DNA of 64,000 nucleotides. Source: an uncultured virus (IMG/VR IMGVR_UViG_3300042307_001070) (taxonomy: Duplodnaviria; Heunggongvirae; Uroviricota; Caudoviricetes). The stretch lies in the IMG/VR virus record IMGVR_UViG_3300042307_001070; one strand, written 5' to 3'. The notes beneath the pieces are model-generated. The model worked only from the letters and a program-made list of their open reading frames with translations, searched no databases and was not told the origin of the DNA. The translations under genes and the position numbers were made by a program. Each line of letters begins with the position of its first letter. The first letter of the stretch is position 1. Positions 47,388-63,305 of this stretch are shown here, piece after piece.

Positions 47388-47417
47388 CCATTAACATATT
47401 TATTAATAAAAACAATA

Positions 47418-47915
47418 ATGAAAAGAATAATTAGACTTACAGAATCAGATTTAGCAAGAATTGTTAGACGTGTGATTAAAGAAAACGAAGAAGACTTTGA
47501 CACACAAAGTTTTTTTGATGCTCAGTTTATAATTTTAAAAGAGTTTTTAACAAATTTGGGTTATATTTACATGGATGGTGAAAAACCACCTTATTCTAAA
47601 AAAGGAAGATTAGGTGTTTTTGAAAAAATTTCACATACGGAATCCGGCGAAAATGAACCTGGAACAAGTGGGTTAAAAGATGACTATTTATTTAGGGTAA
47701 AAATAGAGTTGGATTATAATATTTACGGAACAAGAGAAAATAAGTCGTCTATTTCTATATCTAAGTTTACATATGGTGATTCTGATTGGAAAGTTTTAGT
47801 CAATTCAAATGTACCTTGGGTATTAGGTAAACCTAATTATACAAAAATATTACAAGAGTTCAAAAAAATGGGTGAAGAAGCGCCAGGACTTTATTGTGAA
47901 TTTAATAAATGTTAA
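47418..47915 (+). CDS. RLTESDL-module protein
   Basis: [22 protein letters not shown]. Confidence 0.75.
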
Positions 47916-47925
47916 TAAAAAAATA

Positions 47926-48684: not shown

Positions 48685-48690
48685 TTAAAA

Positions 48691-51048
48691 ATGATAGTTA
48701 ATTTAAAAGAAAGCCAGATAGATGGTTTAATTAAATTGGTTCTTGCGGAAGAAAGAACCAAAAAAGGTTTAATTGAGCAGTGGGAAAGGGCACCTGCGGG
48801 AAAACCAAAAGATGCGTTAGGGTATTGGAAAATATTATTTACAAACCTTACCGCTGGTGGAATTGGTGTTAAATGGCAAGTACCTAACGATCCGGTAAAA
48901 TCTACTTTTATGTATTGGGGTGGTTGGATCATATGGAAAGACATAAAAAAGAATGGGGGTTATCCTGTGTCTTTTGGTACGGGAAAAGATGGTCTAACCT
49001 TTGCTTTTTACCCTAAAGGTAAATATGCCGGTCAGCCACTTAACAATATTGAATTGATGGCTTCTAAAAAAAATATACCGGTTTTTAAATTAGACAAGTA
49101 CGCAAAAAAATCAACAAAAGAAGTTACCGATGAGTTTAAAAAACTATTAGGAAATAGTAAAATAAAAAATTTTGTTGGTAATATAGGTAAAGAATTATCC
49201 GCCGTTTGGTCAGATCTATATACTAAACTAAATCAATACAAACCTAGTACAGTAAAGTTAGTTAAATCGAATAGTGGAGACGCATATTTTTTAACCAATT
49301 ATTTTGGAAGCACTCAACTTGGTTTTTACACGAATGGCGATATTAAATTATATGATGGAACTCGTTGGACAAGTATTGGTAAATGGGACTCATCAATGCA
49401 AAAAGACGGTAAACTATCAGGTGGATGGTTAAGTCGAAATAACGGTGAAAAAGTTTCTTTGGGTCCTGCACTTAATGAACCAAATTTAATGCCAATCTCT
49501 TGGATGTTAGCGTCTAGTTGGAATAAAAAATCTACAACAACAACAACAAAAAGTAAAAATTATCCATACGAGGAATTAAAAAATAATCCGACACCGGAAT
49601 TTATTGCTAAAGTAATAAAAGAATCAAGAGGTACTGTTCAAGATAATGAGGCTTGGGCTGAGTCCGCATTTATGGCAATTAAAAATATGGCTATGTATGA
49701 TAAAGTCGCTAAAGCTTTAGGTACCGACCCATATAAATTTGTTAAATCGTTTATTACCGTATCAATTAAGTATCACGTTCAGGCTATACAGGTATCATAC
49801 TTACAATTACTTAATGATGAAAAACCAATTACTGTAACTAAATTTTCCACACAATGTCCATTAACTTTTACTGAACAAAATCCTGGTGGTGGTAAAACAA
49901 ATAAAAGTGGACAAGTACCTTACGCTCTTTGGAATACAAATAAAGATCCATATTTAAAGGTAGTGGGTGCCTTTAGTGAATATAAAGGAGTAGTGCCTGG
50001 AGATTTTGGATGGAAACTTAATAATAATATTTACCCATACCCTACTTTATATAGTAAATCATGTACGCTCGGAACAAATCTTAACGAGTCTAAGATTTAC
50101 GAACAGGTAAATTTTGATAGATTCAATAAATCACCCCAACTGCAGACAATTGATATTCGCCAGGTGAATCCTTCGGCAAGAAAGGTTAGTATTAATACTA
50201 AAAATCAAAAAAAGATGATTGAGTTTAATAATGCGTTGGTACAACAAAATAAATTAATACCACAATATTGTCAAAAACCATTAAGGAGGGAGAAACGAGT
50301 AGCAAGAGGTGGTAATGACCCTAAAATTATTGATGCGTATTTAAGTATGTATACCCTATGTAAGGATTTTGGAGGTTTATGGGTACGTGGAGCCAACACC
50401 GCAAACTTTACATGTGGATGTAGAGATATGAATGCTATTGATTTAAATGTTGCGGTTGATGATGGTAGTGGATTCAAAAATCGTATGGGTCAAACAATAT
50501 CACAATCAGTAGATAAAACACAAACATCAAAAAATTGGTCGGACGCGGAAAACCAACAGTTGGCACTTAATGCACTTGCATTGGCATCGGCATTTATACC
50601 TGTTGTTGGACCTGCAATATCTGCAGGTATTAGTCTTGCAGGGGCTTATGGTCAATATAGACAAGGTAATAATAAAGCCGCGGCTATTGAATTATTTTTT
50701 GCCGTTTTACCGTTTATAGGGAAAATACCTGGTATGGCCAAAGTAAGTAAAACAATGGCTGGAAGTCTAAAGGTAAAATTAGTTAGAGGTGGTACTATGA
50801 CATTGACAGAATTTAACACAGTAAAACAAATAATTGCGTACGATACTTACATTTCCTCAAAAGTTGGACAATATTTAAAAAAACAAGCGATGAGTGACGT
50901 GTCAAAAACATTATTAACAACCGCAGTTAAAAAGGTTGAACAAAAGGTGGTTGGATTGGCCGGTACACCAACCTATGGAGATCTTAAAAAGAAAGCCACA
51001 GGAGAAACCTTGGCGGTAACTACAGGTGTTGAGGATAAAAACACATAA
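48691..51048 (+). CDS. Large protein with C-terminal hydrophobic helical hairpin
   Basis: LKESQI module; AFIPVVGPAISAGISLAGA..LPFIGK segment. Confidence 0.65.
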   Translation: MIVNLKESQIDGLIKLVLAEERTKKGLIEQWERAPAGKPKDALGYWKILFTNLTAGGIGVKWQVPNDPVKSTFMYWGGWIIWKDIKKNGGYPVSFGTGKDGLTFAFYPKGKYAGQPLNNIELMASKKNIPVFKLDKYAKKSTKEVTDEFKKLLGNSKIKNFVGNIGKELSAVWSDLYTKLNQYKPSTVKLVKSNSGDAYFLTNYFGSTQLGFYTNGDIKLYDGTRWTSIGKWDSSMQKDGKLSGGWLSRNNGEKVSLGPALNEPNLMPISWMLASSWNKKSTTTTTKSKNYPYEELKNNPTPEFIAKVIKESRGTVQDNEAWAESAFMAIKNMAMYDKVAKALGTDPYKFVKSFITVSIKYHVQAIQVSYLQLLNDEKPITVTKFSTQCPLTFTEQNPGGGKTNKSGQVPYALWNTNKDPYLKVVGAFSEYKGVVPGDFGWKLNNNIYPYPTLYSKSCTLGTNLNESKIYEQVNFDRFNKSPQLQTIDIRQVNPSARKVSINTKNQKKMIEFNNALVQQNKLIPQYCQKPLRREKRVARGGNDPKIIDAYLSMYTLCKDFGGLWVRGANTANFTCGCRDMNAIDLNVAVDDGSGFKNRMGQTISQSVDKTQTSKNWSDAENQQLALNALALASAFIPVVGPAISAGISLAGAYGQYRQGNNKAAAIELFFAVLPFIGKIPGMAKVSKTMAGSLKVKLVRGGTMTLTEFNTVKQIIAYDTYISSKVGQYLKKQAMSDVSKTLLTTAVKKVEQKVVGLAGTPTYGDLKKKATGETLAVTTGVEDKNT

Positions 51049-51073
51049 ATAAAAAATTAAGATATTTATTAAA

Positions 51074-51484
51074 ATGAAAAAAATTATTAGACTAACAGAA
51101 TCCGATTTAGCAAGAATTGTTAAAATGGTTATTTTTGAAACGTCTATGACAAAAGAACAAGTTAAAAGTTCAATATCTAATTTTATTAGTTCTTGTGTTA
51201 AAAATATGAAAGAACTTGATAATATTATGAGAGCAAGTGGTTATAGTGCTATTGCGATATTTTTAGGTGTGTGTAGTTTTTTAACTGTTGAAATTCCTGG
51301 AATCGCATTGATGTTCGGAGCATCCGCAATTAATTTTGGTACACAAGCATATAAGGAAATAAGTGGAATATACACATCACTAAAAACAGAAGAAAAAAAA
51401 TCACAATTTAAAAATAAATGTAATAATGTTTTTACTTGTGTATCTAATAAAATAGAAAACCAAGGGTTGTTAGATTTGTTATAA
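51074..51484 (+). CDS. RLTESDL-module protein with hydrophobic segment
   Basis: [22 protein letters not shown]. Confidence 0.7.
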   Translation: MKKIIRLTESDLARIVKMVIFETSMTKEQVKSSISNFISSCVKNMKELDNIMRASGYSAIAIFLGVCSFLTVEIPGIALMFGASAINFGTQAYKEISGIYTSLKTEEKKSQFKNKCNNVFTCVSNKIENQGLLDLL

Positions 51485-51504
51485 TAAAAAATAAAATAAA
51501 TAAA

Positions 51505-51855
51505 ATGAAAAAAATTATTAGACTTACAGAATCCGATTTAGCAAGAATTGTTAGACGGGTTATTAGAGAAGAAGAAAATAAACTACCTTGTGATACTTGG
51601 GAAGGTGCGATAAAATTCATTAAAGATAATCCATTAGGTGTACAGGGGTTTAAATTTGAAAGATTTGTTGAGGGTATTAAAACCAACCCAATGGTTTTAA
51701 AACACCCAACAATAAAAGGTGAGTTACAAATCGAAAAAGATAATACATGGAACTTATTCGATATCAAAGGAAAAAGTACCAACTCAGGTAAATGGTCATG
51801 CAAATCAATGCCAGGTGGAGGAACTCGAATTAGTCTTGGTGTTGATTTAAAATAA
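51505..51855 (+). CDS. RLTESDL-module protein
   Basis: [23 protein letters not shown]. Confidence 0.7.
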   Translation: MKKIIRLTESDLARIVRRVIREEENKLPCDTWEGAIKFIKDNPLGVQGFKFERFVEGIKTNPMVLKHPTIKGELQIEKDNTWNLFDIKGKSTNSGKWSCKSMPGGGTRISLGVDLK

Positions 51856-51878
51856 AAACACTTTTTAAATAAAAAAAA

Positions 51879-52724
51879 ATGAATAGAAGTTATAGTAAAA
51901 TCAGACACATTCAGGAAGCAAATCTATTAATAGAAAAAAGATTACTTGAATCTAAATCCGACAATTTAAAACCATTAATATCAGAACAAGATGTTAAACA
52001 AGGCGCTGCCGGTGATCCATACCAATATAAAAAAGAAGGTGGAAAGTATTTTTATGCTAAAAAGGCTGAAGGGACAAATGCAAAGTGGGTTGAACAAACA
52101 AAAGACGAAGGTATTAAAGCTATTGCAACTAAAATATTTGGTGATCCTGCACCATCAAAAAATCAAACAAGCACTAAACCTGTAGATCCAAATATACCAA
52201 CTAAAGAAAATACACCATTAACAACACCAGCACCGACTAAATCACCAACTAATACGAACACGACAACGAATACAACAATACCAACCAAAACACCAACGAA
52301 TACGAACACGACAACGAATACTAATACGAATACAACAACGAATACTAATACGAATACACCAACCACAAATAATCAACAATCTACCGTTCAGTGGGGAAAT
52401 ATACCAATAGTTGGGGGAACCTTTGCTGCTGATAAATGTAATGGGGGTAATACAATCAATGATCAACAAGTTAGAGGATTTTTAAGTGACGGTGGAGATA
52501 ATTTTTGGTCTAAATCTACAATAGACACAAAAAACAAAACTTATTATTTTTATTATCAAGAACCAATAAAGAAAAATAGTTCATCAGGTAAAAAATATTG
52601 TAAAATAACCGATATTAAAACATACGATTTAACGGGATATACAGACAAAAGAGACAATACTAAAGTCAATACTAAGTATTTTGGTTATCTTGTTACTTCT
52701 GTAGAAATACCCCAAACAACATAA
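51879..52724 (+). CDS. MNRSYSKIRHIQE-module protein with Thr/Asn repeat linker
   Basis: Shared N-terminus; TNTNTTT repeats. Confidence 0.7.
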   Translation: MNRSYSKIRHIQEANLLIEKRLLESKSDNLKPLISEQDVKQGAAGDPYQYKKEGGKYFYAKKAEGTNAKWVEQTKDEGIKAIATKIFGDPAPSKNQTSTKPVDPNIPTKENTPLTTPAPTKSPTNTNTTTNTTIPTKTPTNTNTTTNTNTNTTTNTNTNTPTTNNQQSTVQWGNIPIVGGTFAADKCNGGNTINDQQVRGFLSDGGDNFWSKSTIDTKNKTYYFYYQEPIKKNSSSGKKYCKITDIKTYDLTGYTDKRDNTKVNTKYFGYLVTSVEIPQTT

Positions 52725-52816
52725 AAAAATAATAAAAACACTTGTCAATTAAAAAAAAATACCTATATTTGTAGTGTAATTAAAACTTTTAGAAAAAACT
52801 ATATATTTATAACAAG

Positions 52817-52927
52817 ATGAGAACAACTAATAAACATATGAACATTTGTAACCCGAGCATTCAGTGGTCGTTTAACGTGTATCGTACGCTTAAGTCGCAT
52901 ATTAGGGCATTTTCATTTATGAGTTGA
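52817..52927 (+). CDS. Putative attenuator leader peptide 1 (36 aa)
   Basis: MRTTNKHMNICNPSIQWSFNVYRTLKSHIRAFSFMS* between promoter elements (TATATTTG 52764; TATTTAT 52804) and a terminator ahead of tRNA array 1. Confidence 0.65.
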   Translation: MRTTNKHMNICNPSIQWSFNVYRTLKSHIRAFSFMS

Positions 52928-52958
52928 TAAAGATTAACTAAAAATATAAAAGAAATAT

Positions 52959-52991
52959 AAGACCCGAACTCAAAACAGTTCGGGTTTTTTT
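52959..52991 (+). terminator. Intrinsic terminator/attenuator before tRNA array 1
   Basis: GACCCGAACT-CAAAAC-AGTTCGGGTT plus T tract. Confidence 0.85.
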
Positions 52992-53005
52992 ATACCCAAA
53001 AATTT

Positions 53006-53078
53006 GGTTCCTTAGTATAGTTTGGTAATATCCCGGCTTTGTAACCCGGAGTCATCAGTTCGAACCTGATAGGAACCT
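53006..53078 (+). tRNA. tRNA-Thr(TGT)
   Basis: GGTTCCT/AGGAACC acceptor; TT-TGT-AA; TTCGAAC. Confidence 0.85.
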
Positions 53079-53094
53079 CAAACAAAAAGAAAAA

Positions 53095-53111
53095 GTTCTT
53101 TGACATATTGG
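53095..53111 (+). promoter_or_regulatory. boxA-like antitermination element
   Basis: GTTCTTTGACATATTGG, identical at 57178. Confidence 0.65.
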
Positions 53112-53121
53112 CTTCATAAAA

Positions 53122-53205
53122 GGAGAGATAATCACAACGGCTTGTGACTCCGTCTTGAAAACGGCAGGTACTGAAAGGTATGGGGGTCGGCACCTCATCT
53201 CTCCT
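53122..53205 (+). tRNA. tRNA-Ser(TGA)
   Basis: GGAGAGA/TCTCTCC; CT-TGA-AA; long variable arm; atypical T-loop. Confidence 0.75.
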
Positions 53206-53213
53206 CTGTAAAT

Positions 53214-53298
53214 TGCGGGGTAGACGAATTAGGCAAAGTCACCAGATTTTGACTCTGGAGGTAAATTACCATTGGAGGTTCGATCCCTCCCCCCGTAG
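53214..53298 (+). tRNA. tRNA-Gln(TTG) with extended variable arm
   Basis: TGCGGGG/CCCCGTA; CCAGA-TT-TTG-AC-TCTGG; 15-nt variable region. Confidence 0.85.
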
Positions 53299-53312
53299 CT
53301 AAAAAACAATAT

Positions 53313-53386
53313 CTAGGTGTAGCTCAGTTTGGTAGAGCGGGGAGTTTGGGACTCTCAGGTCGCAGGTTCGATCCCTGTCACTTAGA
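53313..53386 (+). tRNA. tRNA-Pro(TGG)
   Basis: Canonical cloverleaf, TT-TGG-GA. Confidence 0.9.
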
Positions 53387-53390
53387 CAAC

Positions 53391-53466
53391 GTCTTCGTAG
53401 CTCAGTTGGTTTTAGAGCACTCCACTTTTAATGGAGGGGTCACAGGTTCGATTCCTGTCGGGGACA
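53391..53466 (+). tRNA. tRNA-Lys(TTT)
   Basis: CTCCA-CT-TTT-AA-TGGAG. Confidence 0.9.
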
Positions 53467-53535
53467 CAAAAAAATTTAGTAAAAAAGAACGATAGTTACC
53501 AAAAAATGGTTATCTTCGTTCCAAGAAACTAAAAT

Positions 53536-53609
53536 ACACTCTTAGCTCAGATGGTAGTAGCGGTTGTTTTACATACAACAGGTCACAGGTTCAAACCCTG
53601 TAGAGTGTA
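53536..53609 (+). tRNA. tRNA-Val(TAC)
   Basis: GTTGT-TT-TAC-AT-ACAAC. Confidence 0.88.
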
Positions 53610-53619
53610 CAAAAAATAA

Positions 53620-53700
53620 GGAAGTGTTGAGCATTTGGCTGGCTCGCTTGACTGTAGATCAAGTCCGAAAGGCGTGTAGGTTCGACCCCTACCACTTCCA
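53620..53700 (+). tRNA. tRNA-Tyr(GTA)
   Basis: CTTGA-CT-GTA-GA-TCAAG; variable arm. Confidence 0.88.
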
Positions 53701-53708
53701 CAACAAAT

Positions 53709-53797
53709 TGATGGGTGTCCCGAGATGGCCGAAGGGTCCGGCCTGTTAAGCCGATGAGAAATATTCTCCACCGTGGGTTCGAATCCCACCCCATCAG
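53709..53797 (+). tRNA. tRNA-Asn(GTT) with long variable arm
   Basis: TGATGGG/CCCATCA; CT-GTT-AA; variable stem GAGAA/TTCTC. Confidence 0.85.
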
Positions 53798-53847
53798 CTG
53801 ATTTTTTCCGAACTATCAGATATTTATTAATATAAAATGTTAATATT

Positions 53848-54390
53848 ATGGAAAGGTATTCGGAAAAAATTATATCTTTGAGGAAAGAAGGGAAAACCTA
53901 CAAAGAGATTACTAAAATTTTAGGTTGTGCAATGTCAACAGTGTCGTATCATTGTCAGATACATAAATTGGGGGATAACAACCAAAAAGTGACGGAAGAA
54001 GAGAAAGATAAACTTCAAAAATTATACGATGAAGTAGGATCCTTAAAAAAAGTTGCAAGGATAACAGGTAGGTCTTTTGAAACTGTTAAAAAACACGTTA
54101 ATAGTGTGGTTAGAGTTAAAAAGATTAGTGGTTCCCAATCGGTTATATTGTGGAGAAAGAGAACTAAAAAGAAATTAATTGAATATAAGGGGGGAGGATG
54201 TGAATTGTGTGGGTATAGTAAATGTGATTCAGCATTACAATTTCACCATAAAAACCCTGACGAAAAAGATTTCTCAATTTCTGGTAGAAGTTTGTCTTTT
54301 GACAGATTAAAAGAAGAAGTTGATAAATGTATGTTGGTGTGTTCTAACTGTCACGCCGAAATACACGAAAAAAATACCACCGAGAAGTGA
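53848..54390 (+). CDS. HTH + HNH homing endonuclease within the tRNA array
   Basis: Two HTH-like segments; CELCGY..LQFHH..CMLVCSNCHAEIH. Confidence 0.85.
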   Translation: MERYSEKIISLRKEGKTYKEITKILGCAMSTVSYHCQIHKLGDNNQKVTEEEKDKLQKLYDEVGSLKKVARITGRSFETVKKHVNSVVRVKKISGSQSVILWRKRTKKKLIEYKGGGCELCGYSKCDSALQFHHKNPDEKDFSISGRSLSFDRLKEEVDKCMLVCSNCHAEIHEKNTTEK

Positions 54391-54449
54391 CTGACGAGTC
54401 CGATGACGAGCTGAGGGGGTGGTTAAGAAATACCCCTAAATACGTACCA

Positions 54450-54522
54450 GTTCACGTAGCTCAATTGGTAGAGCGCCGATCTGATACGTCGGAGGTAATG
54501 GGATCGTAACCCGTCGTGAACA
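54450..54522 (+). tRNA. tRNA-Ile(GAT)
   Basis: CCGAT-CT-GAT-AC-GTCGG. Confidence 0.88.
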
Positions 54523-54580
54523 CAAAAAGGGGGATAACTTGTGTGGGTGCCCCAACTACTGCAGTAGTACCACACTCTAT

Positions 54581-54669
54581 GGAAAGTAAACCCTGAAGGC
54601 GACGGGACATGCCTGCTAAGCATTGTGATCGGTGAAAATCCGATTGTGGATCGTTACCACTGCTTTCCG
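54581..54669 (+). tRNA. tRNA-Ser(GCT)
   Basis: CT-GCT-AA loop; long variable arm; G discriminator. Confidence 0.8.
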
Positions 54670-54673
54670 CAAC

Positions 54674-54743
54674 TCCCGTATGATCAGGGATCAAAGTTGG
54701 CTCATATCCTACTTGAGGTTGGTTCAAGTCCAACATACGGGAC
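54674..54743 (+). tRNA. Atypical tRNA with CAT anticodon (Met/Ile2)
   Basis: TCCCGTAT/ATACGGGA, minimal D-arm GATC-AGG-GATC, CT-CAT-AT, T-arm GTTGG-TTCAAGT-CCAAC. Confidence 0.65.
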
Positions 54744-54749
54744 TTATAT

Positions 54750-54823
54750 GGTGTATGTAGCTCAGTTGGTAGAGTGTCGGTTTGTGGAACCGAAGGTCGT
54801 GGGATCGTGACCCATCATACACA
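54750..54823 (+). tRNA. tRNA-His(GTG)
   Basis: Encoded G-1; TCGGT-TT-GTG-GA-ACCGA. Confidence 0.88.
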
Positions 54824-54824
54824 C

Positions 54825-54992
54825 AAAAGATGATAAGAAGCGTAGAATGACAGACGTGGAGAGACGTGTCGCAAGGGTACAAACTAAGGATAGGTATTCA
54901 ATCTTAATTGTATTGATGTAATAACCCAACTCTCTAATGGTGTGTGAAGGTTTCCAAACCAAGATTCCTGATAAAGTCATTCATCATCTTTT
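54825..54992 (+). ncRNA. Candidate structured RNA between tRNA-His and tRNA-Trp
   Basis: AAAAGATGAT/ATCATCTTTT and GAATGAC/GTCATTC closing helices. Confidence 0.5.
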
Positions 54993-55033
54993 TTTGACAT
55001 CCGATGTCGGTCCCGAGCTAGGTCGGGCAATTT

Positions 55034-55104
55034 GCGTGGTACAGACAAGGTGTCGGTCAGGTCTCCAAAACCTCGACGGGTTAGTTCGATTCTAACACCA
55101 CGCG
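55034..55104 (+). tRNA. tRNA-Trp(CCA)
   Basis: GCGTGGT/ACCACGC; AGGT-CT-CCA-AA-ACCT; compact D-arm. Confidence 0.8.
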
Positions 55105-55114
55105 CAAATAACAA

Positions 55115-55187
55115 GGACTCGTAGCTCAGTTGGTAGAGCACAGGACTGAAAATCCTGGTGTGGTCGGTTCGATTCCGTCCGAGTCCA
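55115..55187 (+). tRNA. tRNA-Phe(GAA)
   Basis: CAGGA-CT-GAA-AA-TCCTG. Confidence 0.92.
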
Positions 55188-55204
55188 CAAAACAAATAGA
55201 AATA

Positions 55205-55660
55205 ATGAACAGAGTATTTAGAACGGTTAACGGTGAAACAATTCCTGATGTGGTAAAACATACCTTAGATGTTCTGAAAGAATGTCCATGGGTGGAAGTA
55301 CACATCGGTACAGACTCACAAAACCACAGAAGAAGTACCGTGTATGTTACGGTAATAGCTTATAGGTATGGGAATAGGGGTGTCCATTATATTCTTCACA
55401 AACAGAAAGTGAAAAAAATAAGAGATAAATGGACACGTCTTTGGAATGAGGCCGATTATTCAATTGAGGTTGCCGAATGGTTAACCAAAAAAGTAAAGGT
55501 GCAAGTTGAGATTGACTTAGATTATAATAGTCAGGAAAAACATTTCAGTTCAAAACTTGTTCCTCCTGTTGTTGGGTGGGCAACATCGTTGGGTTATAAA
55601 ACAAATATTAAACCTGACAACCAAATTGCAACAAAAGCGGCAGATCACCACTGCCGTTAA
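55205..55660 (+). CDS. RNase H-like YkuK (DUF458) family protein
   Basis: HIGTDSQ, RLWNEA, EIDLDYN, AADH; real start MNRVFR (the track start lies inside tRNA-Phe). Confidence 0.8.
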   Translation: MNRVFRTVNGETIPDVVKHTLDVLKECPWVEVHIGTDSQNHRRSTVYVTVIAYRYGNRGVHYILHKQKVKKIRDKWTRLWNEADYSIEVAEWLTKKVKVQVEIDLDYNSQEKHFSSKLVPPVVGWATSLGYKTNIKPDNQIATKAADHHCR

Positions 55661-55665
55661 TATAA

Positions 55666-55737
55666 GGACCTATGACCGAGAGATTTAGGTGCCGGTCTGC
55701 AAAACCGGTTAGATTGGTTTGATTCCAATTAGGTCCT
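55666..55737 (+). tRNA. tRNA-Cys(GCA)
   Basis: CCGGT-CT-GCA-AA-ACCGG; U discriminator. Confidence 0.88.
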
Positions 55738-55744
55738 CAATAAT

Positions 55745-55825
55745 ACCTTCGTGGTGGAACGGTAGACACGTCAGATTTAGGATCTGATGCCGTAAGGTGT
55801 GAGAGTTCGAGTCTCTCCGAAGGTA
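55745..55825 (+). tRNA. tRNA-Leu(TAG)
   Basis: TCAGA-TT-TAG-GA-TCTGA; variable arm. Confidence 0.9.
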
Positions 55826-55836
55826 CAAAAAAGATT

Positions 55837-55875
55837 GATCCGTTATCTGTTGTGAAACACGTAACGGATTTTTTT
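55837..55875 (+). terminator. Terminator ending tRNA array 1
   Basis: ATCCGTTA..TAACGGAT plus T tract. Confidence 0.7.
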
Positions 55876-55910
55876 GTATATTGATATATTTATATATAAA
55901 ATAAAATATT

Positions 55911-56180
55911 ATGAATAGATTAACAGAAAGAGATTTGTCAAGAATTGTTAGACAAGTTATTAAAGAAGACAAAGAAGATAAGAAAAAAACTATGAATGAC
56001 ATACCTGATAGTTTCTTTAAAAGTTTTTTATCAAAAACTAGTAGCATAATGACAAGCGAGGAGTTTTCTGATATTGAATCAATTTTAGGAAAAAGAGTTG
56101 GATCAAATGGTGAAGGTATGGGTGATGTTTTTGAAAAAATATTTATGGAAGCAAGAACAAGAAGAAGAAAAAACGATTAA
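55911..56180 (+). CDS. RLTExDL-module protein
   Basis: MNRLTERDLSRIVRQVIKE. Confidence 0.7.
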   Translation: MNRLTERDLSRIVRQVIKEDKEDKKKTMNDIPDSFFKSFLSKTSSIMTSEEFSDIESILGKRVGSNGEGMGDVFEKIFMEARTRRRKND

Positions 56181-56181
56181 T

Positions 56182-56625
56182 ATGAAAAAAATAATAAGAC
56201 TTACAGAATCAGATTTAACAAGGATAGTAAAAAAGGCGATTAACGAATCCAAATCACTAACTAAAAAACAATTGGATCAGATGGTTAAAGATAGTCTAAT
56301 CACCCCAAGAGATAGTGAAATCTTAAAACTATATTATATTGATAATATGAGTTTTGATGATATAGCTAATAAGTTTGATAGAACCGTATCAAGTACTAAA
56401 CAACTAATTAAAAAGTTATATAATGATATTTCAGATGTTGATGGGTTAAAAAATAAAAGACAAAGTAAAGATGACTCACAAAAAGAAAACCATATAAATA
56501 AAGTTAAAAAAGAAATGAAAAGGGTTAAATTTTATCTTGATAATGGTTATTTAACTAAAAATGAAATTATGTCTTTATTTAAAGAAGTTTTAAATGGTGA
56601 AGAAAAATTAACAACATTAAGATAA
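56182..56625 (+). CDS. RLTESDL-module protein with sigma region 4-like HTH
   Basis: ITPRDSEILKLYYIDNMSFDDIANKFDRTVSSTKQ. Confidence 0.7.
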   Translation: MKKIIRLTESDLTRIVKKAINESKSLTKKQLDQMVKDSLITPRDSEILKLYYIDNMSFDDIANKFDRTVSSTKQLIKKLYNDISDVDGLKNKRQSKDDSQKENHINKVKKEMKRVKFYLDNGYLTKNEIMSLFKEVLNGEEKLTTLR

Positions 56626-56629
56626 ATTT

Positions 56630-57009
56630 TTAAATAAAACTTGACACTTTTGAAAAGAGTGAATATTTATAATTAAAATAATATTATGAGAAAAACTATA
56701 AAATTAACGGAAGGTGATTTATCACGTATTGTTAGACGAGTTATTAAAGAAGATAAAGAAGAAGATGAAATGGAAGGTATGGGTATGTCCATTACAGTAA
56801 AAGATATATTTGAGGCGGTTATAGATGCTCTTCACGATCTTGGTACGTATGATGATGCATCTATGGGTGAAAAGGCAATGAATTTGGCTAAAATGATTAT
56901 GAGTAACATGCAAGATGACTTGGCTTACGTTACTGAGAATTATGAGGATCAACTTTATGATATTCTTGGTGATGAAAATTATTAAATAAAACTTGACACT
57001 TTTGAAAAG
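56630..57009 (+). repeat. 28-nt direct repeat flanking gene 56686..56985
   Basis: TTAAATAAAACTTGACACTTTTGAAAAG at 56630-56657 and 56982-57009. Confidence 0.85.
56686..56985 (+). CDS. KLTEGDL-module protein
   Basis: [22 protein letters not shown]. Confidence 0.7.
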   Translation: MRKTIKLTEGDLSRIVRRVIKEDKEEDEMEGMGMSITVKDIFEAVIDALHDLGTYDDASMGEKAMNLAKMIMSNMQDDLAYVTENYEDQLYDILGDENY

Positions 57010-57045
57010 TATCATATATTTATAACAAAACAAATAAAAACGCAA

Positions 57046-57120
57046 ATGAAAAATTTACATATCATATTATTAGGCGGATTGGCGATAGCTGAGGATCGTT
57101 CCTATAAGGAGATGGTATGA
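57046..57120 (+). CDS. Putative attenuator leader peptide 2 (24 aa)
   Basis: MKNLHIILLGGLAIAEDRSYKEMV*; GAGATGG (57109-57115) is complementary to the terminator arm CCATCTC (57150-57156). Confidence 0.65.
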   Translation: MKNLHIILLGGLAIAEDRSYKEMV

Positions 57121-57145
57121 TAAATTAATTATATAATAAATTTTG

Positions 57146-57177
57146 AAACCCATCTCAATTACGAGGTGGGTTTTTTT
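57146..57177 (+). terminator. Intrinsic terminator/attenuator before tRNA array 2
   Basis: AAACCCATCTC-AATTAC-GAGGTGGGTTT plus T tract, directly followed by a boxA-like element. Confidence 0.85.
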
Positions 57178-57290
57178 GTTCTTTGACATATTGGTAAAAA
57201 AAAGTTTAAAAAAGATTTGGTAGATCAAAATAGATTACATATCTTTGTAAAACAAATAAGGAAAAAAGGTTCTTTGAAATATTAAAAATA

Positions 57291-57383
57291 TTGTGGTTGT
57301 AAGAAACGGGAAACTCGTAAAGTGCATTAACCTGTTGACTCAAGATGGTGAAACGAGAGTTTGAGTCAACTACTAAACTACAA
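57291..57383 (+). ncRNA. Candidate structured RNA
   Basis: TTGTGGTT/AACTACAA closing helix; perfect GTTGACTCAA/TTGAGTCAAC stem. Confidence 0.5.
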
Positions 57384-57392
57384 ATGGTATAT

Positions 57393-57464
57393 CGCAGGAT
57401 AGAGCAGTGGTAGCTCGCAAGGCTCATAACCTTGAGGTCGGAGGTTCGAACCCTTCTCCTGCAA
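57393..57464 (+). tRNA. Initiator-type tRNA-Met(CAT)
   Basis: C1:A72 mismatch; CAAGG-CT-CAT-AA-CCTTG. Confidence 0.88.
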
Positions 57465-57547
57465 CAACTAATAGCCAACCAAGCTTTACTACGATACGGG
57501 TAATACCTGTGGGTTAGGGGTGACGGTCAGGAGAGACTGACGATTAT

Positions 57548-57627
57548 GCTGACGTACCGGTGGATGCTTATATCATCTATGCCCGTAGAGGAAGTTTTAA
57601 ACGTTGGTTCGATCCCAACCGTCAGTA
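57548..57627 (+). tRNA. D-armless tRNA-like RNA with TAT (Ile) anticodon
   Basis: GCTGACG/CGTCAGT; TGGATG-CT-TAT-AT-CATCTA directly after the acceptor; normal T-arm. Confidence 0.55.
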
Positions 57628-57633
57628 CAATAA

Positions 57634-57705
57634 GCGGGTATCGTATAATGGTTATTACTCCACACTTCCAATGTGGAGATGAGTGTTCGATTCATTCTAC
57701 CCGCA
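57634..57705 (+). tRNA. tRNA-Gly(TCC)
   Basis: CCACA-CT-TCC-AA-TGTGG. Confidence 0.88.
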
Positions 57706-57710
57706 CAAAT

Positions 57711-57780
57711 GGGCCTGATGCCGACGGCAGGTCAACTGATTTGCAATCAGATTGTTTGGGTTCGATTCCCACAGTGTCCA
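57711..57780 (+). tRNA. tRNA-Ala(TGC), atypical
   Basis: G3-U70 pair, bulged acceptor, CTGA-TT-TGC-AA-TCAG, tiny D-loop. Confidence 0.7.
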
Positions 57781-57852
57781 CAAAAAAAGTTTGAAAAAGA
57801 TTTGGCAGATTGAAATAGATTACATATCTTTGTAGAACAAAAATAAAGAACT

Positions 57853-58134
57853 ATGACAAACACAGAGACAATTAAAACCGTAGGTTTAAAAATTACAAAA
57901 ATTGAAGGATACGATTATTGTTTGACAGGATACCCAAACAAAAACACAATCCGTAATTGGGAAGATGCGTATGAGTTTGAAAGTTTTGTACAAGATGTTT
58001 TAAAGATTGAAGGTGAGTTTGATTCTGAAAGTGGTCAGTTCTACGTGTACTTCAAAACTAAACAAAAGGCAACTGCGGCTTTGAATAAGATTGAAAAACA
58101 TTTCAAAAAAGTTGGTGAAATGTTAGGTTTGTAA
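57853..58134 (+). CDS. Hypothetical protein
   Basis: ORF after a TTTG..TATCTTTG promoter. Confidence 0.6.
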   Translation: MTNTETIKTVGLKITKIEGYDYCLTGYPNKNTIRNWEDAYEFESFVQDVLKIEGEFDSESGQFYVYFKTKQKATAALNKIEKHFKKVGEMLGL

Positions 58135-58142
58135 GAGTTAAT

Positions 58143-58216
58143 CGCCCGTTGGACAAGTGATTGAAGTCGCTTCCCTTTCACGGAAGAGATCATGGGTTTG
58201 AATCCCATACGGGTGA
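58143..58216 (+). tRNA. tRNA-Glu(TTC)
   Basis: CTTCC-CT-TTC-AC-GGAAG. Confidence 0.85.
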
Positions 58217-58217
58217 C

Positions 58218-58408
58218 AATGAGTGAGAGATACTCAAGATGTTTTTAAGTTCATACAAAACTTAACGGTAGAAGTTACACCTACGTTACGGGTACTCGTT
58301 GGGAATAAGGAAGGAAGGTTCTCCTCGCCCCCAAGTAAGAACTGACTTTTAAGTGGTAAGACACGTTGGGTTTTCAAATAGAAAAACTGTGAATATCTAC
58401 TCACCATT
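58218..58408 (+). ncRNA. Candidate ~190-nt structured RNA
   Basis: Termini pair: AATG-GTGAG-AGATA / TATCT-CTCAC-CATT. Confidence 0.5.
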
Positions 58409-58429
58409 AATCTCAGGTGGGGAAACTTT

Positions 58430-58500
58430 GGTCCATTGGTGAAATATTATCATATCTGACTGTCTATCAGAAGTCCTCGGAGAGTAACCGGGATGAACCG
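58430..58500 (+). tRNA. tRNA-Asp(GTC)
   Basis: TCTGA-CT-GTC-TA-TCAGA; G discriminator; atypical T-loop. Confidence 0.75.
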
Positions 58501-58522
58501 CACAAAGTGTTCTTTTAAAATA

Positions 58523-58663
58523 TTGATAGTGGTTTTCCCCACCTCAACGGATGTCGACAATCCAGAGTGGATCAGGAATTCAGCACCCTTTCTGCCGGGG
58601 CCCTGATAAAAGTCAGAAGAAGCAGTTAAGATTGGAGCGAGACGGGTACTCCATCACTATCAA
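58523..58663 (+). ncRNA. Candidate ~140-nt structured RNA
   Basis: TTGATAGTG/CACTATCAA closing helix right after a boxA-like site. Confidence 0.5.
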
Positions 58664-58670
58664 CATATTT

Positions 58671-58733
58671 AGTCAGGTGGCGGAAGGGTAAACGCACTAC
58701 AATCAGCAACAGGTTCGAGTCCTGTCCTGACTA
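58671..58733 (+). ncRNA. tRNA-like RNA (AGTCAGG acceptor), vestigial anticodon arm
   Basis: AGTCAGG/CCTGACT, D-arm, ACAGG-TTCGAGT-CCTGT. Confidence 0.6.
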
Positions 58734-58772
58734 CGTGGGAAAGATCTATCCCGAAAACAGAACATGGATCAC

Positions 58773-58868
58773 AAACACGTAAACCTAAGTACCTGTACAG
58801 CGGTGAGTAACGGGCTAAGTTATATACAATTCCTCGGAGCTGGGAGTAGAATGCTTAGGAGCGTGTTT
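58773..58868 (+). ncRNA. Candidate structured RNA
   Basis: AAACACG/CGTGTTT and CCTAAGTA/TGCTTAGG helices. Confidence 0.45.
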
Positions 58869-58959
58869 TTAAAATATAAAAAACTATGACACCATTATTG
58901 TTGATATTATTTATTATGTTTATCTTTGTAGTAAGAAAAAGAAGATAAAATTATTGGTT

Positions 58960-59075
58960 GGTCAGGAGTGTAATGAGGCACGGTGCCGAGTCCCCAAGAC
59001 CAATAGTCCCAGACACTTGTGGGTTCTATGGAGTCGTAAGGTTGCTCATTGTGGGTTCGACTCCCACCCTGACAT
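58960..59075 (+). ncRNA. tRNA-like RNA (GTCAGG acceptor) with enlarged central domain
   Basis: GTCAGG/CCTGAC; GTGGG-TTCGACT-CCCAC T-arm; ~65-nt insert where the anticodon arm would be. Confidence 0.55.
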
Positions 59076-59240
59076 CACCGGTTACTTGATTCCTGGTAGT
59101 AGAGTAACAACCATTGGGGAATTCGGGATGTCCCGCGAATGGTGGTGTAAGATAAGAGGAACTTACAACGGTAGAGTACCATAAACAAAAGAAACAAGAC
59201 GTAGAGGTGACTCTGCGTTGGCGCAAATCTCTACCAACTT

Positions 59241-59332
59241 AGTCAGGTTGGTACAAGGTCGGTTCGAGTCCGATGGAAGGTCATGGATGTCGGGTAGCTC
59301 CCTGTAGAGAGGTTCGATTCCTCTCCTGACTA
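59241..59332 (+). ncRNA. tRNA-like RNA (AGTCAGG acceptor) with two T-loop hairpins
   Basis: AGTCAGG/CCTGACT; TCGG-TTCGAGT-CCGA and AGAGG-TTCGATT-CCTCT. Confidence 0.55.
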
Positions 59333-59371
59333 CACTTGACATTATTAAATTAATGTCTTATTATTATACAA

Positions 59372-59445
59372 AACCGGGTAGCTCAGCTGGTAGAGCAATC
59401 CTTTTTAAACAGGACGTGTCATTGGTTCAATCCCTTTCCCGGTTT
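59372..59445 (+). tRNA. Pseudo/atypical tRNA with 8-nt anticodon loop TTTTAAAC
   Basis: AACCGGG/CCCGGTT, canonical D-arm, weak T-stem; own TTGACA-N17-TATTAT promoter (59336-59364). Confidence 0.55.
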
Positions 59446-59469
59446 TTTTATTTATAAAATTAAAATATT

Positions 59470-59676
59470 ATGAAAAAGTTTCTTTTATTGGTTTTGTCTT
59501 ATGTTCTGTCATTCAGTATTGTTTGGGTTGGTTTGGGGTTGTTCAAATACTATTTGGAATCAGAATCATCAATCGGAACTTTTTTAATTGGATTAGTTGG
59601 TTTTTTCGTTGCCATTAATCCTGCTATGGATGTTTGGGAAAAATTATTCAAACGCTGGTTTAAAATCAAAGAATAA
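59470..59676 (+). CDS. Small two-TM membrane protein
   Basis: Two hydrophobic segments. Confidence 0.6.
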   Translation: MKKFLLLVLSYVLSFSIVWVGLGLFKYYLESESSIGTFLIGLVGFFVAINPAMDVWEKLFKRWFKIKE

Positions 59677-59860
59677 TAATTTAATAGTATGATCCACTCA
59701 AGAGGAGTGTTGGAACGGAGTTTGTTAATCTATTTATAAAAAAAAAACACTATGGAAGTAATTATCGCATGTTTAGTACCGATCGCGTTGATAGGTATTA
59801 TGGTAGTATCTTATTTGACCTACAAGGGGAGATAAAAAAAGGGACCGAAGTCCCTTTATG

Positions 59861-60469
59861 TTATTTAATGTCTGTTGACTCTATTAGAGTATATGAAAAC
59901 TTGTTTCCGTGAATTTTAGATGCCTTCTTACATAAAGACATAAACACATCAAAGTCTTTTACTCTTTTAAATACTTGACAACCCTCACTCCAATTTTCAA
60001 CCCACTGTGAGTCTTGACCTGCTTTGTGGATGTTAATACCAAAAATACCAGTATCGGTTTTTGTTTCTTCAAAAATAAGATCTTTGTTTGCATCTCTCCA
60101 TACAGTTACATTTCCTAATCTTTGACAAAGAGCTTCATATTTTCCTTGATGTAAATCAATTTTCCATACACCTCTGTACTGACCCGGTACTAATCTTGCA
60201 ACACCATTTTTGTTATGGAATTGTTGAACACCCTTTTTACCTGGATCACATGTTGCCATCCAACAATAGTATTGCCAAGCACCTTTTTCATCTTTAAATG
60301 ATAATGTTAGATGATCGTCAAACACATTGGTCACTTTTTTATAAACCGCTGGTGACGTGTTTCTTACTCCTACGATATTCACATCGTAACTTTTGTTGTT
60401 TGCGTCTTCAAACCAAACATACCCTTTGGCTTTTACGGCAGCCTCAACCTGTTCTCTTGTGTAACTCAT
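59861..60469 (-). CDS. Putative peptidoglycan-active enzyme (YkuD/L,D-transpeptidase-like)
   Basis: FGINIH..WSEGCQV His/Cys motif. Confidence 0.6.
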   Translation of the reverse strand: MSYTREQVEAAVKAKGYVWFEDANNKSYDVNIVGVRNTSPAVYKKVTNVFDDHLTLSFKDEKGAWQYYCWMATCDPGKKGVQQFHNKNGVARLVPGQYRGVWKIDLHQGKYEALCQRLGNVTVWRDANKDLIFEETKTDTGIFGINIHKAGQDSQWVENWSEGCQVFKRVKDFDVFMSLCKKASKIHGNKFSYTLIESTDIK

Positions 60470-60547
60470 AATAATTAATTTTGATTATAAATATTGTGAT
60501 TTTTGAAAAGTAAATAGGTTTTTTAAGGTATTGTCATATTTATTAAT

Positions 60548-62167: not shown

Positions 62168-62185
62168 AAAACAAAAAAGAAAAAA

Positions 62186-62623
62186 ATGATTGATTCAATT
62201 TTATTAGTAGATGATGAGGATTTATTCCATTTGGTATTTGAAGACGCTTGTTCGTTACTTGACATAAGTTTGTCTTTAAATGCGTTAAATAGTTCTGACG
62301 AGGCAGCAAAACTATTTCAAAAATGGTTCCAGGATGGTGACAATAATGATAAACCTGAATGTGTGTTTGTTGACTTAAACATAATTGGTAGTTCTTTTGA
62401 TGGTATAGAGTTAATTAGAAAAGTTAATTTTGAATATGGTAATCACGTAGTTATTGGTATCATATCATCATCAAACGAACCGGAAGAACAAGCAAAAGCG
62501 CTCCAGGCTGGTGCTCAATTCTGGATTATTAAATCAGATGATATTGAACCTCGTTTAGAAGAGTTTAGAAAAGATTATGACGGTTACAAAAATAGAACCT
62601 TACCTTTTAAAGTATATAAATGA
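62186..62623 (+). CDS. Single-domain response regulator (receiver)
   Basis: LLVDDE, FVDLN phosphoacceptor, ISSS, IIKS. Confidence 0.9.
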   Translation: MIDSILLVDDEDLFHLVFEDACSLLDISLSLNALNSSDEAAKLFQKWFQDGDNNDKPECVFVDLNIIGSSFDGIELIRKVNFEYGNHVVIGIISSSNEPEEQAKALQAGAQFWIIKSDDIEPRLEEFRKDYDGYKNRTLPFKVYK

Positions 62624-63294: not shown

Positions 63295-63305
63295 AACAAA
63301 AACGT

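Follow-up and report, generated by a model that had tools for sequence, protein, structure and literature searches.

What controls the tRNA genes of this phage, and could their expression answer to the supply of tRNA itself? The window, the whole 64,000-nucleotide stretch of DNA analysed here, derives from an uncultured virus of the Caudoviricetes and carries two tRNA arrays. A sequence-only reading had proposed that both share one layout (promoter, short open reading frame, intrinsic terminator, tRNAs) and that the short frames are leaders which sense tRNA depletion. This layout is found at both arrays. Both elements are quite likely ribosome-mediated (trp/ilv-type) transcription attenuators controlling the arrays. 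As the leaders use the codons of their own array and a terminator precedes each array, the phage would probably raise its output of a given tRNA set when that set becomes scarce for the ribosomes.

Organization of the two arrays

The promoter-like sites, leaders, helices, terminators, arrays and exact boxA-like copies described below all lie on the + strand. Upstream of leader 1, a motif scan and a sigma-70-type scan detected a promoter-like site, P1 (52742..52771; TTG, 19 nt, TAnnTTTG), whose two boxes TTG and TAnnTTTG are retained among aligned relatives and which we take to be of the Bacteroidota promoter type. Leader 1 (52817-52927) encodes 36 amino acids, MRTTNKHMNICNPSIQWSFNVYRTLKSHIRAFSFMS, and its stop codon TGA is directly abutted by TAA (52817..52930 with the tandem stops). 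Among related viral contigs 28 distinct versions occur, and the frame is intact in 38/38 loci holding the region, with a length of 34-37 codons. An A/U-rich spacer of roughly 30 nt separates leader 1 from intrinsic terminator 1 (52961..52991), a candidate attenuator with a 10-bp stem, a 6-nt loop and a T-run (-14.6 kcal/mol), whose arms show compensatory changes between subgroups. In all 38 loci, 11-15 nt separate terminator 1 from the first tRNA.

Array 1 (53006..55826) opens with the start of tRNA-Thr at 53006 and comprises 16 tRNAs (Thr, Ser-tga, Gln, Pro, Lys, Val, Tyr, Asn, Ile-gat, Ser-gct, Met, His, Trp, Phe, Cys and Leu-tag), an HNH/HTH gene (53848-54390) and an RNaseH-like gene (55205-55660). 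It thus serves 15 amino acids, as had been claimed. ARAGORN at default settings reports 12 of the tRNAs in 53006-55826; lowered thresholds add Ser-tga (53122-53206), Ser-gct (54581-54670), Met (54673-54743) and Trp (55034-55105). These four calls are weaker, the Rfam score for the Trp gene being only 33.6 bits. A tRNA-Arg is present in array 1 of 28 of the 38 loci and absent from that of the window, despite three Arg codons in the window's leader 1. The array is closed by a terminator (55845..55876; 10 pairs, T-run). Because the motif scan found no promoter-like motif within array 1 and the gap ahead of it measures 11-15 nt, its expression would depend on read-through of terminator 1.

The second promoter-like site, P2 (56993..57022; 11/12 matches), is conserved in the alignment and stands 5′ of leader 2; its sequence also precedes, as a predicted promoter, a neighbouring protein gene. 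Leader 2 (57046-57120; 57046..57123 with the tandem stops TGA TAA) encodes 24 amino acids, MKNLHIILLGGLAIAEDRSYKEMV; its frame is unbroken in 44 loci, which represent 24 distinct sequences. Intrinsic terminator 2 (57145..57177), again a candidate attenuator, has 12 pairs and is 95.1% paired across relatives, with covariation. Array 2 (57393..58501) has the content first read from it: Met, Ile-tat, Gly and Glu at default ARAGORN settings, together with Ala (57711-57779) and Asp (58430-58501) at lowered thresholds only. Relatives additionally carry Leu-taa in first position, a tRNA that ARAGORN did not detect in the window's own array 2. The internal promoters said to bypass attenuator 2 were recovered by the motif scan as promoter-like sites 3′ of it, at 57217..57247 and 57802-57832.

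Near both arrays lies the same 17-nt element, GTTCTTTGACATATTGG, which presumably resembles boxA. Exact copies were found where the earlier reading placed them, at 53095..53111 and 57178..57194, and a third copy with 3 mismatches at 57269-57285. The expected count is 0.39, and three matches were reached in 1/100 shuffles. In relatives the element is retained before the first or second tRNA.

Codon content of the leaders

After the start codon, 34/35 codons of the window's leader 1 belong to array 1, as do 34/34 in a relative (L012); with an array-1 codon share of 0.687 in the genome, this gives P = 3e-5 and P = 3e-6, respectively. Only 4/35 match array 2. Across the 28 distinct sequences, which are related so that counts are not independent events, 29 of 968 codons fall outside the array-1 set, 27 of them within the last nine codons. 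The window's leader 1 contains 17 of the amino-acid types, the missing ones being exactly D, E and G, in agreement with the earlier reading, and all amino acids served by array 1 are present in leader 1 of 31/31 complete arrays. Leader composition also departs from chance: for codons drawn at random according to genome usage, the probability that 35 of them cover all 16 array-1 boxes is P = 9e-4, and the probability that 34 of them include no A, D, E or G is P = 1.5e-4.

Synonymous codons are divided between the leaders. For Leu, leader 1 uses CTN 45 times, TTG once and TTA never (array 1 tRNA, Leu-tag), and leader 2 uses TTA 59 times, TTG 26 times and CTA once (matching array 2 tRNA, Leu-taa), compared with 57% TTA, 13% TTG and 30% CTN in the genome. 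For Ile, the counts are ATT 48, ATC 1 and ATA 1 in leader 1 (Ile-gat), and ATA 43, ATC 12 and ATT 2 in leader 2 (Ile-tat). In the core of leader 2, array-2-type codons make up 266/338 across relatives versus 33% expected, and 12/15 in the window; the boundaries of the ‘sensor’ and ‘core’ parts were chosen after the data had been seen. The window's complete leader 2 matches its own array 2 in only 10/23 codons (P = 0.07), because no Leu-taa tRNA was detected there. The proposed absence of C, F, P, Q, T and W from leader 2 holds in the window, but F, C and T do occur in the 3′ part of the leader in relatives. Leader-array codon matching at the level of codon boxes, reciprocal between the two arrays, is supported.

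The co-variation of leader and array that had been suggested as a check is found both among distant relatives and in a phage unrelated to them. In L081/L082, a single merged array, whose 26 tRNAs serve 20 amino acids, follows a leader of 41 codons containing all 20 amino acids and covering 23/23 boxes (P = 1.2e-4). The leader of L067/L068 matches its array (Thr, Gly, Ser, Leu, Leu, Arg, Met, Ile-tat) in 17/27 codons (P = 2.5e-3) and covers 8/8 boxes. In the unrelated GenBank phage LR745206.1, the tRNAs are spread over seven small arrays, each preceded by a leader in which the cognate codons are abundant; one such leader has 23/24 cognate codons (P about 1e-9), and among the six small arrays the best match of each leader is its own. 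Recent losses of tRNAs are not tracked in L009/L010 (8 tRNAs) and L015/L016 (10 tRNAs), which keep a full leader. Other arrays, related and unrelated, have a plain promoter without a leader (L084-L087, L054-L057, L044 and IAS virus). Contigs from RNA libraries are fragmentary.

Alternative pairings and the proposed switch

In leader 2, region 1 (57057-57065) pairs with 57112-57121 (the two regions spanning 57057..57121), a 1:2 hairpin that appears in the minimum free energy (MFE) fold of 28/28 distinct sequences in two registers. Region 2 (57108-57115; GGAGATGG) is predicted to pair alternatively with the 5′ arm of terminator 2. This 2:3 interaction shows 95.5% pairing, including 4 pairs in which both sides have changed, and 0/500 shuffles equal it; judged on sequence, leader 2 is the carrier of a covarying trp-type antiterminator.

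For leader 1 the picture differs between subgroups. Its helix 1:2 (52815..52918), which joins the start-codon region (52815-52823) to 52910-52918 (codons 32-34), is predicted in the consensus folds of 3/3 subgroups and in the MFE fold, with no informative covariation save two G-U changes in the window. A small hairpin over the stop codons (52923..52938) likewise occurs in all three consensus folds, its sequence differing in each subgroup. The 2:3 duplex of five divergent sequences reaches -18.5 to -23.3 kcal/mol, and 0/300 shuffles are as good for both representatives tested (L020 and L045). Antiterminator pairing is a perfect 8 bp in L067, -16.1 in L081 and -13.5 to -21.4 in 6/7 leaders of LR745206.1. 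The best duplex of the window's leader 1 is -7.5 kcal/mol, which 42% of 300 shuffles equal, and the antiterminator is absent from the consensus fold of 12 window-like sequences. The leader-attenuator idea is supported by the conserved frames, the codon match, the co-variation with array content and the antiterminator of leader 2, but not by the best leader 1 duplex of the window, which is no better than shuffles.

As proposed, transcription would begin at the host-type promoter, and a ribosome would translate the short leader as RNA polymerase nears the terminator, which stands 11-15 nt before the first tRNA in array 1, and in array 2 of some relatives about 30 nt plus the boxA-like element ahead of it. 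The middle part of each leader presents codons that its own array's tRNAs read. With fast decoding, the ribosome would reach the end of the frame and cover region 2, and the terminator would form. A scarce aminoacyl-tRNA would slow a sampled codon and stall the ribosome upstream; region 2 could then pair with the 5′ arm of the terminator, and polymerase would read into the array. Without a ribosome, the 1:2 hairpin would hold region 2 and termination would follow. Newly made tRNAs would restore decoding and shut the switch, constituting a feedback. We infer leader translation, stalling, the read-through decision and the cause of tRNA depletion.

One alternative, unlikely but the most credible of those considered, is that decay has left attenuator 1 of this phage as an unregulated, partly leaky terminator and that only the ancestral design was a switch. 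The window-like subgroup lacks a 2:3 pairing that beats shuffles, compared with about -20 kcal/mol in the divergent subgroup, and the window's array 1 is missing Arg tRNAs. However, leader frame and codon set are fully retained in the 12 window-like sequences. The antiterminators of trp-type attenuators are also weaker than the terminator and act kinetically.

It is somewhat less likely again that the attenuators, though genuine, respond to overall translation activity or amino-acid starvation, for instance as an infection timer, and neither report the level of particular tRNAs nor act as a counter-measure to tRNA-cleaving defence. In trp/his-type attenuators a stalled ribosome cannot distinguish a missing from an uncharged tRNA, no sequence feature indicates nucleases, and the common A-rich start (MKT, MTT, MKN) resembles a general initiation ramp. 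Yet for a general sensor the division of codon boxes between two leaders would be needless, as would one leader per amino-acid group in LR745206.1. The suggested role in counter-defence against anticodon nucleases is speculation, and the data agree just as well with a plain feedback of supply and demand.

The leaders are very improbably independent small-protein genes with their own promoter and terminator, with leaky read-through or other promoters supplying the tRNAs and a match in composition that is coincidental. The peptide of leader 1 is basic without acidic residues, like some small nucleic-acid-binding peptides, the window's array 2 has promoter-like sites of its own, and leaders are unchanged where arrays lost tRNAs. 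Against this, variable columns number 23, 27 and 24 of 36 by codon position, and the absence of a third-position excess argues against selection on peptide sequence; neither leader matches a Pfam family. The codon match recurs in five further leader types of quite different composition, the last codons of the frame covary with the terminator arm, and before array 1 the space is too short for a promoter.

Just as improbable is that the regions are untranslated RNA elements (a processing 5′ leader, a small RNA or a plain terminator) with incidental open frames: conserved helices are present and several stretches are nucleotide-conserved, third positions included, but all 28 (leader 1) and 24 (leader 2) distinct versions retain the start codon and an open frame, stop codons are common in this DNA of 32% G+C, gap runs are 3 nt within the frames (5/6 in leader 1, 2/2 in leader 2) and a mixed 1-7 nt outside them, and neither codon-box composition nor the reciprocal split of the leaders has an RNA-only explanation.

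Relation to known regulatory systems

A literature search found no published description of leader-peptide attenuators gating phage tRNA arrays. The closest parallel to the proposed attenuators is offered by those of amino-acid operons (ilvGMEDA and thr leaders of E. coli/Salmonella; trpL, hisL, leuL, pheL), which likewise have a promoter-proximal short ORF with regulatory codons, mutually exclusive pairings 1:2, 2:3 and 3:4, and an intrinsic terminator ahead of the controlled genes. Multivalent leaders (ilvGMEDA, thr) also sample several amino acids each. However, those attenuators control enzymes and rely on runs of one to three amino acids, whereas the elements described here would control tRNA genes, are phage-encoded in a Bacteroidota-type promoter context, and sample 7 to 23 codon boxes, mostly once or twice. 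In the pheST attenuator (pheM leader), a leader controls a translation-apparatus gene cognate to its codons, but that gene encodes phenylalanyl-tRNA synthetase and the leader samples a single amino acid, whereas the genes here yield the tRNAs themselves. A pheST-like leader precedes AsnRS and ArgRS-like genes in LR745206.1.

T-box riboswitches similarly let tRNA status set terminator versus antiterminator 5′ of translation-related genes. They bind uncharged tRNA directly, without an ORF, whereas the proposed reader here is the ribosome; an Rfam scan gave no T-box match. With boxA/Nus antitermination of rRNA operons, the arrays appear to share a short U-rich box, at their heads and 3′ of the attenuator. 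As there, the element could harden polymerase against the many hairpins of an array, but it cannot explain the attenuator decision because it is positioned behind the terminator.

In studies on T5 tRNAs and PARIS, phage tRNA sets are reported to counter tRNA-targeting defences (PMC10264068, PMC11464382). Phage tRNA arrays would likewise be the genes controlled here, which makes host tRNA depletion a plausible trigger. The T5 and PARIS studies reportedly concern what the tRNAs do, whereas the question here is the regulation of their genes.

Layout of the leaders and arrays

The viral record that contains the window is 109 kb long, is estimated to be 37% complete and has a G+C content of 32%. 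Its promoters in the window take the form TTG, about 19 nt, TAnnTTTG, which is presumably of Bacteroidota type, and a script motif scan found 16 strict sites on the gene strand and 3 on the other. The sequence-only reading had described a shared layout of promoter, short ORF, terminator and tRNA array, and this layout was recovered at both arrays by scans for ORFs, hairpins, tRNAs and promoter motifs. Leader 1 (52817-52927), which precedes array 1 (53006..55826), has 36 codons and tandem stops, and starts 46 nt downstream of a promoter-like site. An A/U-rich spacer separates it from terminator 1 (52961-52991), a hairpin with a T-run and compensatory changes, and tRNA-Thr begins 14 nt past this terminator in the window. 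Leader 2 (57046-57120), which precedes array 2 (57393..58501), has 24 codons and tandem stops, with its start 24 nt downstream of a promoter-like site. Terminator 2 (57145-57177) is likewise a hairpin with a T-run and compensatory changes. Directly behind it lies a second exact copy of the 17-nt element GTTCTTTGACATATTGG, in agreement with the claim that the same boxA-like element occurs near both arrays; copies are found at 53095-53111, 57178-57194 and 57269-57285.

Array 1 contains 12 tRNAs under default ARAGORN settings, and Ser-tga, Ser-gct, Met and Trp were added at lowered thresholds. These 16 tRNAs serve the 15 amino acids that had been listed for the array. Leader 1 contains 17 amino acid types and, as had been stated, lacks exactly Asp, Glu and Gly. 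The tRNAs of array 2 are Met, Ile-tat, Gly, Ala, Glu and Asp. Array 1 also has two embedded genes, encoding an HNH endonuclease with helix-turn-helix domains (53848-54390) and an RNaseH-like protein (PF04308; 55205-55660). The latter gene, which every relative retains, was the marker used to identify these relatives.

At 59371-59446 in the window, ARAGORN calls a tRNA whose anticodon loop has eight bases (anticodon read as ttaa), and in array 1 of two related loci (L009/L010) it calls a tRNA with anticodon tta instead of tRNA-Lys. Both may be suppressor or frameshift tRNAs. The tRNA-Arg gene at 45425 was rejected as an attenuated gene, being preceded by an ordinary 58-codon ORF with neither leader nor terminator.

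A blastn search against GenBank phages matched 461 records by tRNA or HNH pieces only. With no record spanning 80% of the query, this collection contains no close relative. Searching with the RNaseH-like protein from array 1 yielded 66 viral contigs with 67-100% identity, and a profile search added 16 further loci; a second scan for related loci, seeded with the protein of L067, found nothing new. Around the leaders, the window also encodes small proteins with a common N-terminus (51074-51484, 51505-51855, 55911-56180, 56184-56625 and 56686-56985). Several of these lie downstream of copies of the leader 2 promoter, and none of those scanned belongs to a Pfam family.

The leader 1 region occurs in 38 loci, one of them the window (28 distinct sequences), and the leader 2 region in 44 loci (24 distinct ORFs). 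The start codon and open frame are intact in every copy, with 34-37 codons in leader 1 and 22-24 in leader 2, which bears out the expectation that the leaders would be conserved frames in related phages. Gap runs within the ORF are 3 nt long in five of six cases for leader 1 and in both cases for leader 2, compared with 1-7 nt in the flanks; the one exceptional run falls where the 3′ ends of five divergent sequences align poorly. Variation is even across codon positions. The Cys of leader 1 stands at three different positions in three subgroups of sequences, and a Pfam search with three leaders gave no family match. Judging from these alignments, it is the frame and the codon set that are conserved, and not the peptide sequence.

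Codon matching between leaders and arrays

In complete arrays, every array amino acid is present in leader 1 (31 of 31). The match is exact in L012, L026, L027 and L070, where the 16 amino acid types of the leader are the 16 types served by the array. For 34 random codons drawn at genome usage, the probability of avoiding Ala, Asp, Glu and Gly is 1.5e-4, and that of including the 15 other types is 2.4e-3. The Arg codons of the window leader, of which there are three, have no counterpart in the window's own array, as no tRNA was detected between tRNA-His and tRNA-Trp (54825-55033). They are explained by the relatives, since a tRNA-Arg (acg and/or tct) occupies this interval in 28 of 38 loci.

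At the level of codon boxes, 34/35 leader 1 codons are of array 1 type in the window and 34/34 in L012, while 4/35 are of array 2 type. Across the 28 distinct leader 1 sequences, 29 of 968 codons fall outside the set; 27 of these 29 lie within the last nine codons, in or adjoining region 2 of the trp-type pairing scheme. Leucine and isoleucine are divided between the two leaders. Leader 1 uses CTN for Leu (45/46) and ATT for Ile (48/50), whereas leader 2 uses TTA or TTG for Leu (85/86) and mostly ATA for Ile (43/57). This split parallels the tRNAs: array 1 has Leu-tag and Ile-gat, and array 2 has Leu-taa and Ile-tat. Genome-wide, TTA is preferred for Leu, and ATA makes up 41% of Ile codons. 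In the leader 2 core, 266 of 338 codons (79%) are of array 2 type compared with 33% expected, and in the window 12 of 15. The bias of the leaders towards rare codons is modest, with a GC3 of 35-40% against 22% and a mean synonymous share of 0.37-0.44 against 0.48.

It had been proposed that leader composition would co-vary with array content in related phages, and this was found in several loci. In L081/L082, where marker identity is 65%, the 26 tRNAs form one array that serves the full set of 20 amino acids. The 41 codons of its leader include every amino acid and both Leu, Ser and Arg boxes (23 of 23 boxes, P = 1.2e-4), and the antiterminator of this leader has a predicted energy of -16.1 kcal/mol. 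In L067/L068, the array carries Thr, Gly, Ser, Leu-tag, Leu-taa, Arg-tct, Met and Ile-tat. Here 17 of 27 leader codons match the leader's own array (P = 2.5e-3), and the 5′ arm of the terminator is perfectly complementary (8 bp) to the last four leader codons.

Two unrelated GenBank phages were examined for the leader element. None was found at the tRNA array of IAS virus. LR745206.1, from an uncultured phage, is 635 kb long with 61 tRNA matches in the whole record, and has seven arrays: His/Phe/Trp/Lys; Arg/Ser; Glu/Tyr; Ile/Gly/Ala/Met; Pro/Asp; Gln; and Asn/Arg/Leu/Val/Ile/Thr/Met. Each is preceded by its own promoter, a cognate leader ORF and a terminator. The leaders hold clusters of own-array codons (for example, seven Gln in 16 codons, or 23 of 24 codons matching with P ~ 1e-9), and in a comparison among six small arrays the best match of each leader was its own array. 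The predicted antiterminator duplexes (2:3) have energies of -13.5 to -21.4 kcal/mol in six of the seven leaders.

The same phage also has a 16-codon leader (L091, 8153-10676) with three Asn and two Arg codons. Behind it lie a gene for an asparagine-tRNA ligase (414 bits, at the NCBIfam cut-off) and one with weak similarity to ArgRS. The 3′ end of this leader is complementary to the 5′ arm of the downstream terminator, and the unit has the appearance of a pheM-type attenuator controlling synthetases encoded by the phage.

Some candidates were set aside. Short ORFs before tRNA-Arg (L063/L066) and before Arg/Trp (L080) have an unconvincing codon match. A leader-1-like copy in L063 with a changed start codon has Glu codons inside and tRNA-Glu in its array, but Gly, Ala and TTA codons are present as well, making it suggestive but untidy rather than a clean case. 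The leaders of the window, L081, L067 and LR745206.1 start alike (MKT, MTT, MKN and MNT), with A-rich codons that are often outside the codon set of their own array. Such starts may be an initiation ramp for hosts without Shine-Dalgarno pairing.

Predicted antitermination and read-through

Leader 2 carries a predicted RNA switch. Its closing codons, GGAGATGG, form the 2:3 antiterminator with the 5′ arm of the terminator. This duplex, which excludes the terminator and would be masked by a ribosome at the end of the ORF, is 95.5% paired; four of its pairs are altered on both sides, and no shuffle out of 500 was as good. One column triple covaries across region 2 and both terminator arms. The 1:2 hairpin, which would hold region 2 in an untranslated leader, joins codons 4-7 to the stop-codon region. 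It is part of the minimum free energy fold of every one of the 28 sequences and takes two registers. The predicted pairings of leader 2 are those of the trp layout.

For leader 1, the antiterminator differs between subgroups. In the five divergent sequences it reaches -18.5 to -23.3 kcal/mol, and in the representatives tested, L020 and L045, 0 of 300 shuffles were as good. The consensus fold of the L012/L032-like sequences has a weaker one, and that of the window-like group has none. In the window, the best 2:3 duplex reaches -7.5 kcal/mol, which 42% of 300 shuffles equal or better. Attenuator 1 of the window may be a weakened copy. Two other pairings in the window leader, codons 12-14 (CCCGAGC) with the 3′ arm and CAGTGGTCG with the 5′ arm (-6.7 kcal/mol), were rejected as they do not covary with changes in the arm. 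In all three consensus folds, the start-codon region pairs with codons 32-34 in a helix of 9 bp that lacks informative covariation, and all groups have a small hairpin over the stop codon.

The first tRNA begins 11-15 nt past terminator 1 in 38 of 38 loci, and the motif scan found no promoter motif inside array 1. With so short a gap and no internal promoter motif, array 1 should be transcribable only via its attenuator. In array 2, only the 17-nt element lies between the terminator and the first tRNA in 10 of 43 loci (26-32 nt); in the remaining loci, including the window, a promoter is inserted there. The motif scan thereby upheld the caveat that internal promoters circumvent attenuator 2, which in the window is, on this evidence, partly bypassed.

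The 17-nt element recurs at the heads of tRNA arrays in the window and its relatives, usually about 10-15 nt upstream of a tRNA. Counted here as a repeat, it is a candidate counterpart of the boxA of rRNA operons, which is bound by NusB/NusE. Its position behind the attenuators raises the possibility that it may protect polymerase inside the array. Between a copy of this element and the first tRNA of array 2, about 100 nt of conserved sequence include a long hairpin (window 57290-57390; also L054 7460-7560 and L044 7760-7870). ARAGORN does not call this sequence as a tRNA, and Rfam gave no match to it at E up to 1.

Among RNA libraries, four runs contained small shares of query words, as contigs only and in fragments. 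In one lake metatranscriptome, contigs cover 52725-52909 with little depth downstream. As tRNAs are poorly recovered in such libraries, the drop behind 52909 is uninformative on termination.

Probable supply on demand and relation to known attenuators

Taken together, sequence comparison makes it quite probable that these elements are ribosome-mediated attenuators that sample the decoding of the codon boxes served by their arrays, placing tRNA supply under feedback control. We lean, less firmly, towards a broader reading, in which many large phages of Bacteroidota-type hosts would keep their tRNA genes on a self-measuring supply circuit. The leader ORF would sample the exact codon boxes of its array, any limiting tRNA would induce the circuit and restored decoding would shut it, with the leader pair of the window splitting the genetic code between two circuits. 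Cleavage by defence nucleases, host shut-off or codon demand, such as that of late genes, could be what depletes the tRNAs, and a counter-defence role of the arrays is possible.

The purpose of phage tRNA genes has been debated for decades, and their regulation indicates what they are for. A leader sampling the codons of its own array implies supply on demand, and the question of function becomes testable through the response of an array to the depletion or cleavage of one tRNA. The leaders would be compact natural sensors of decoding capacity, with potential uses as reporters of tRNA-targeting defence systems and as codon-specific biosensors.

An Rfam scan of 44000-64000 gave no match at E up to 1 to the T-box family, which is characterized by a specifier loop and T-box sequence. 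The hit to the Threonine operon leader (RF00506) at 52907-52994 was dismissed as chance level (24.7 bits, where the gathering score is 55; E = 0.74). In a full-text search of literature outside subscription journals, no publication turned up that describes control of tRNA genes, or of phage tRNA arrays, by leader peptides. Attenuator-like leaders were reportedly suggested long ago to precede the tRNA-Phe genes of Escherichia coli. The traits found here are those of leader-peptide attenuators: a promoter-proximal ORF, cognate codons, an intervening terminator and, in leader 2, a 2:3 antiterminator and 1:2 hairpin. The elements would extend attenuation to a new class of controlled genes, the tRNA genes themselves, through a new form of leader in which up to 23 codon boxes are sampled once or twice each.
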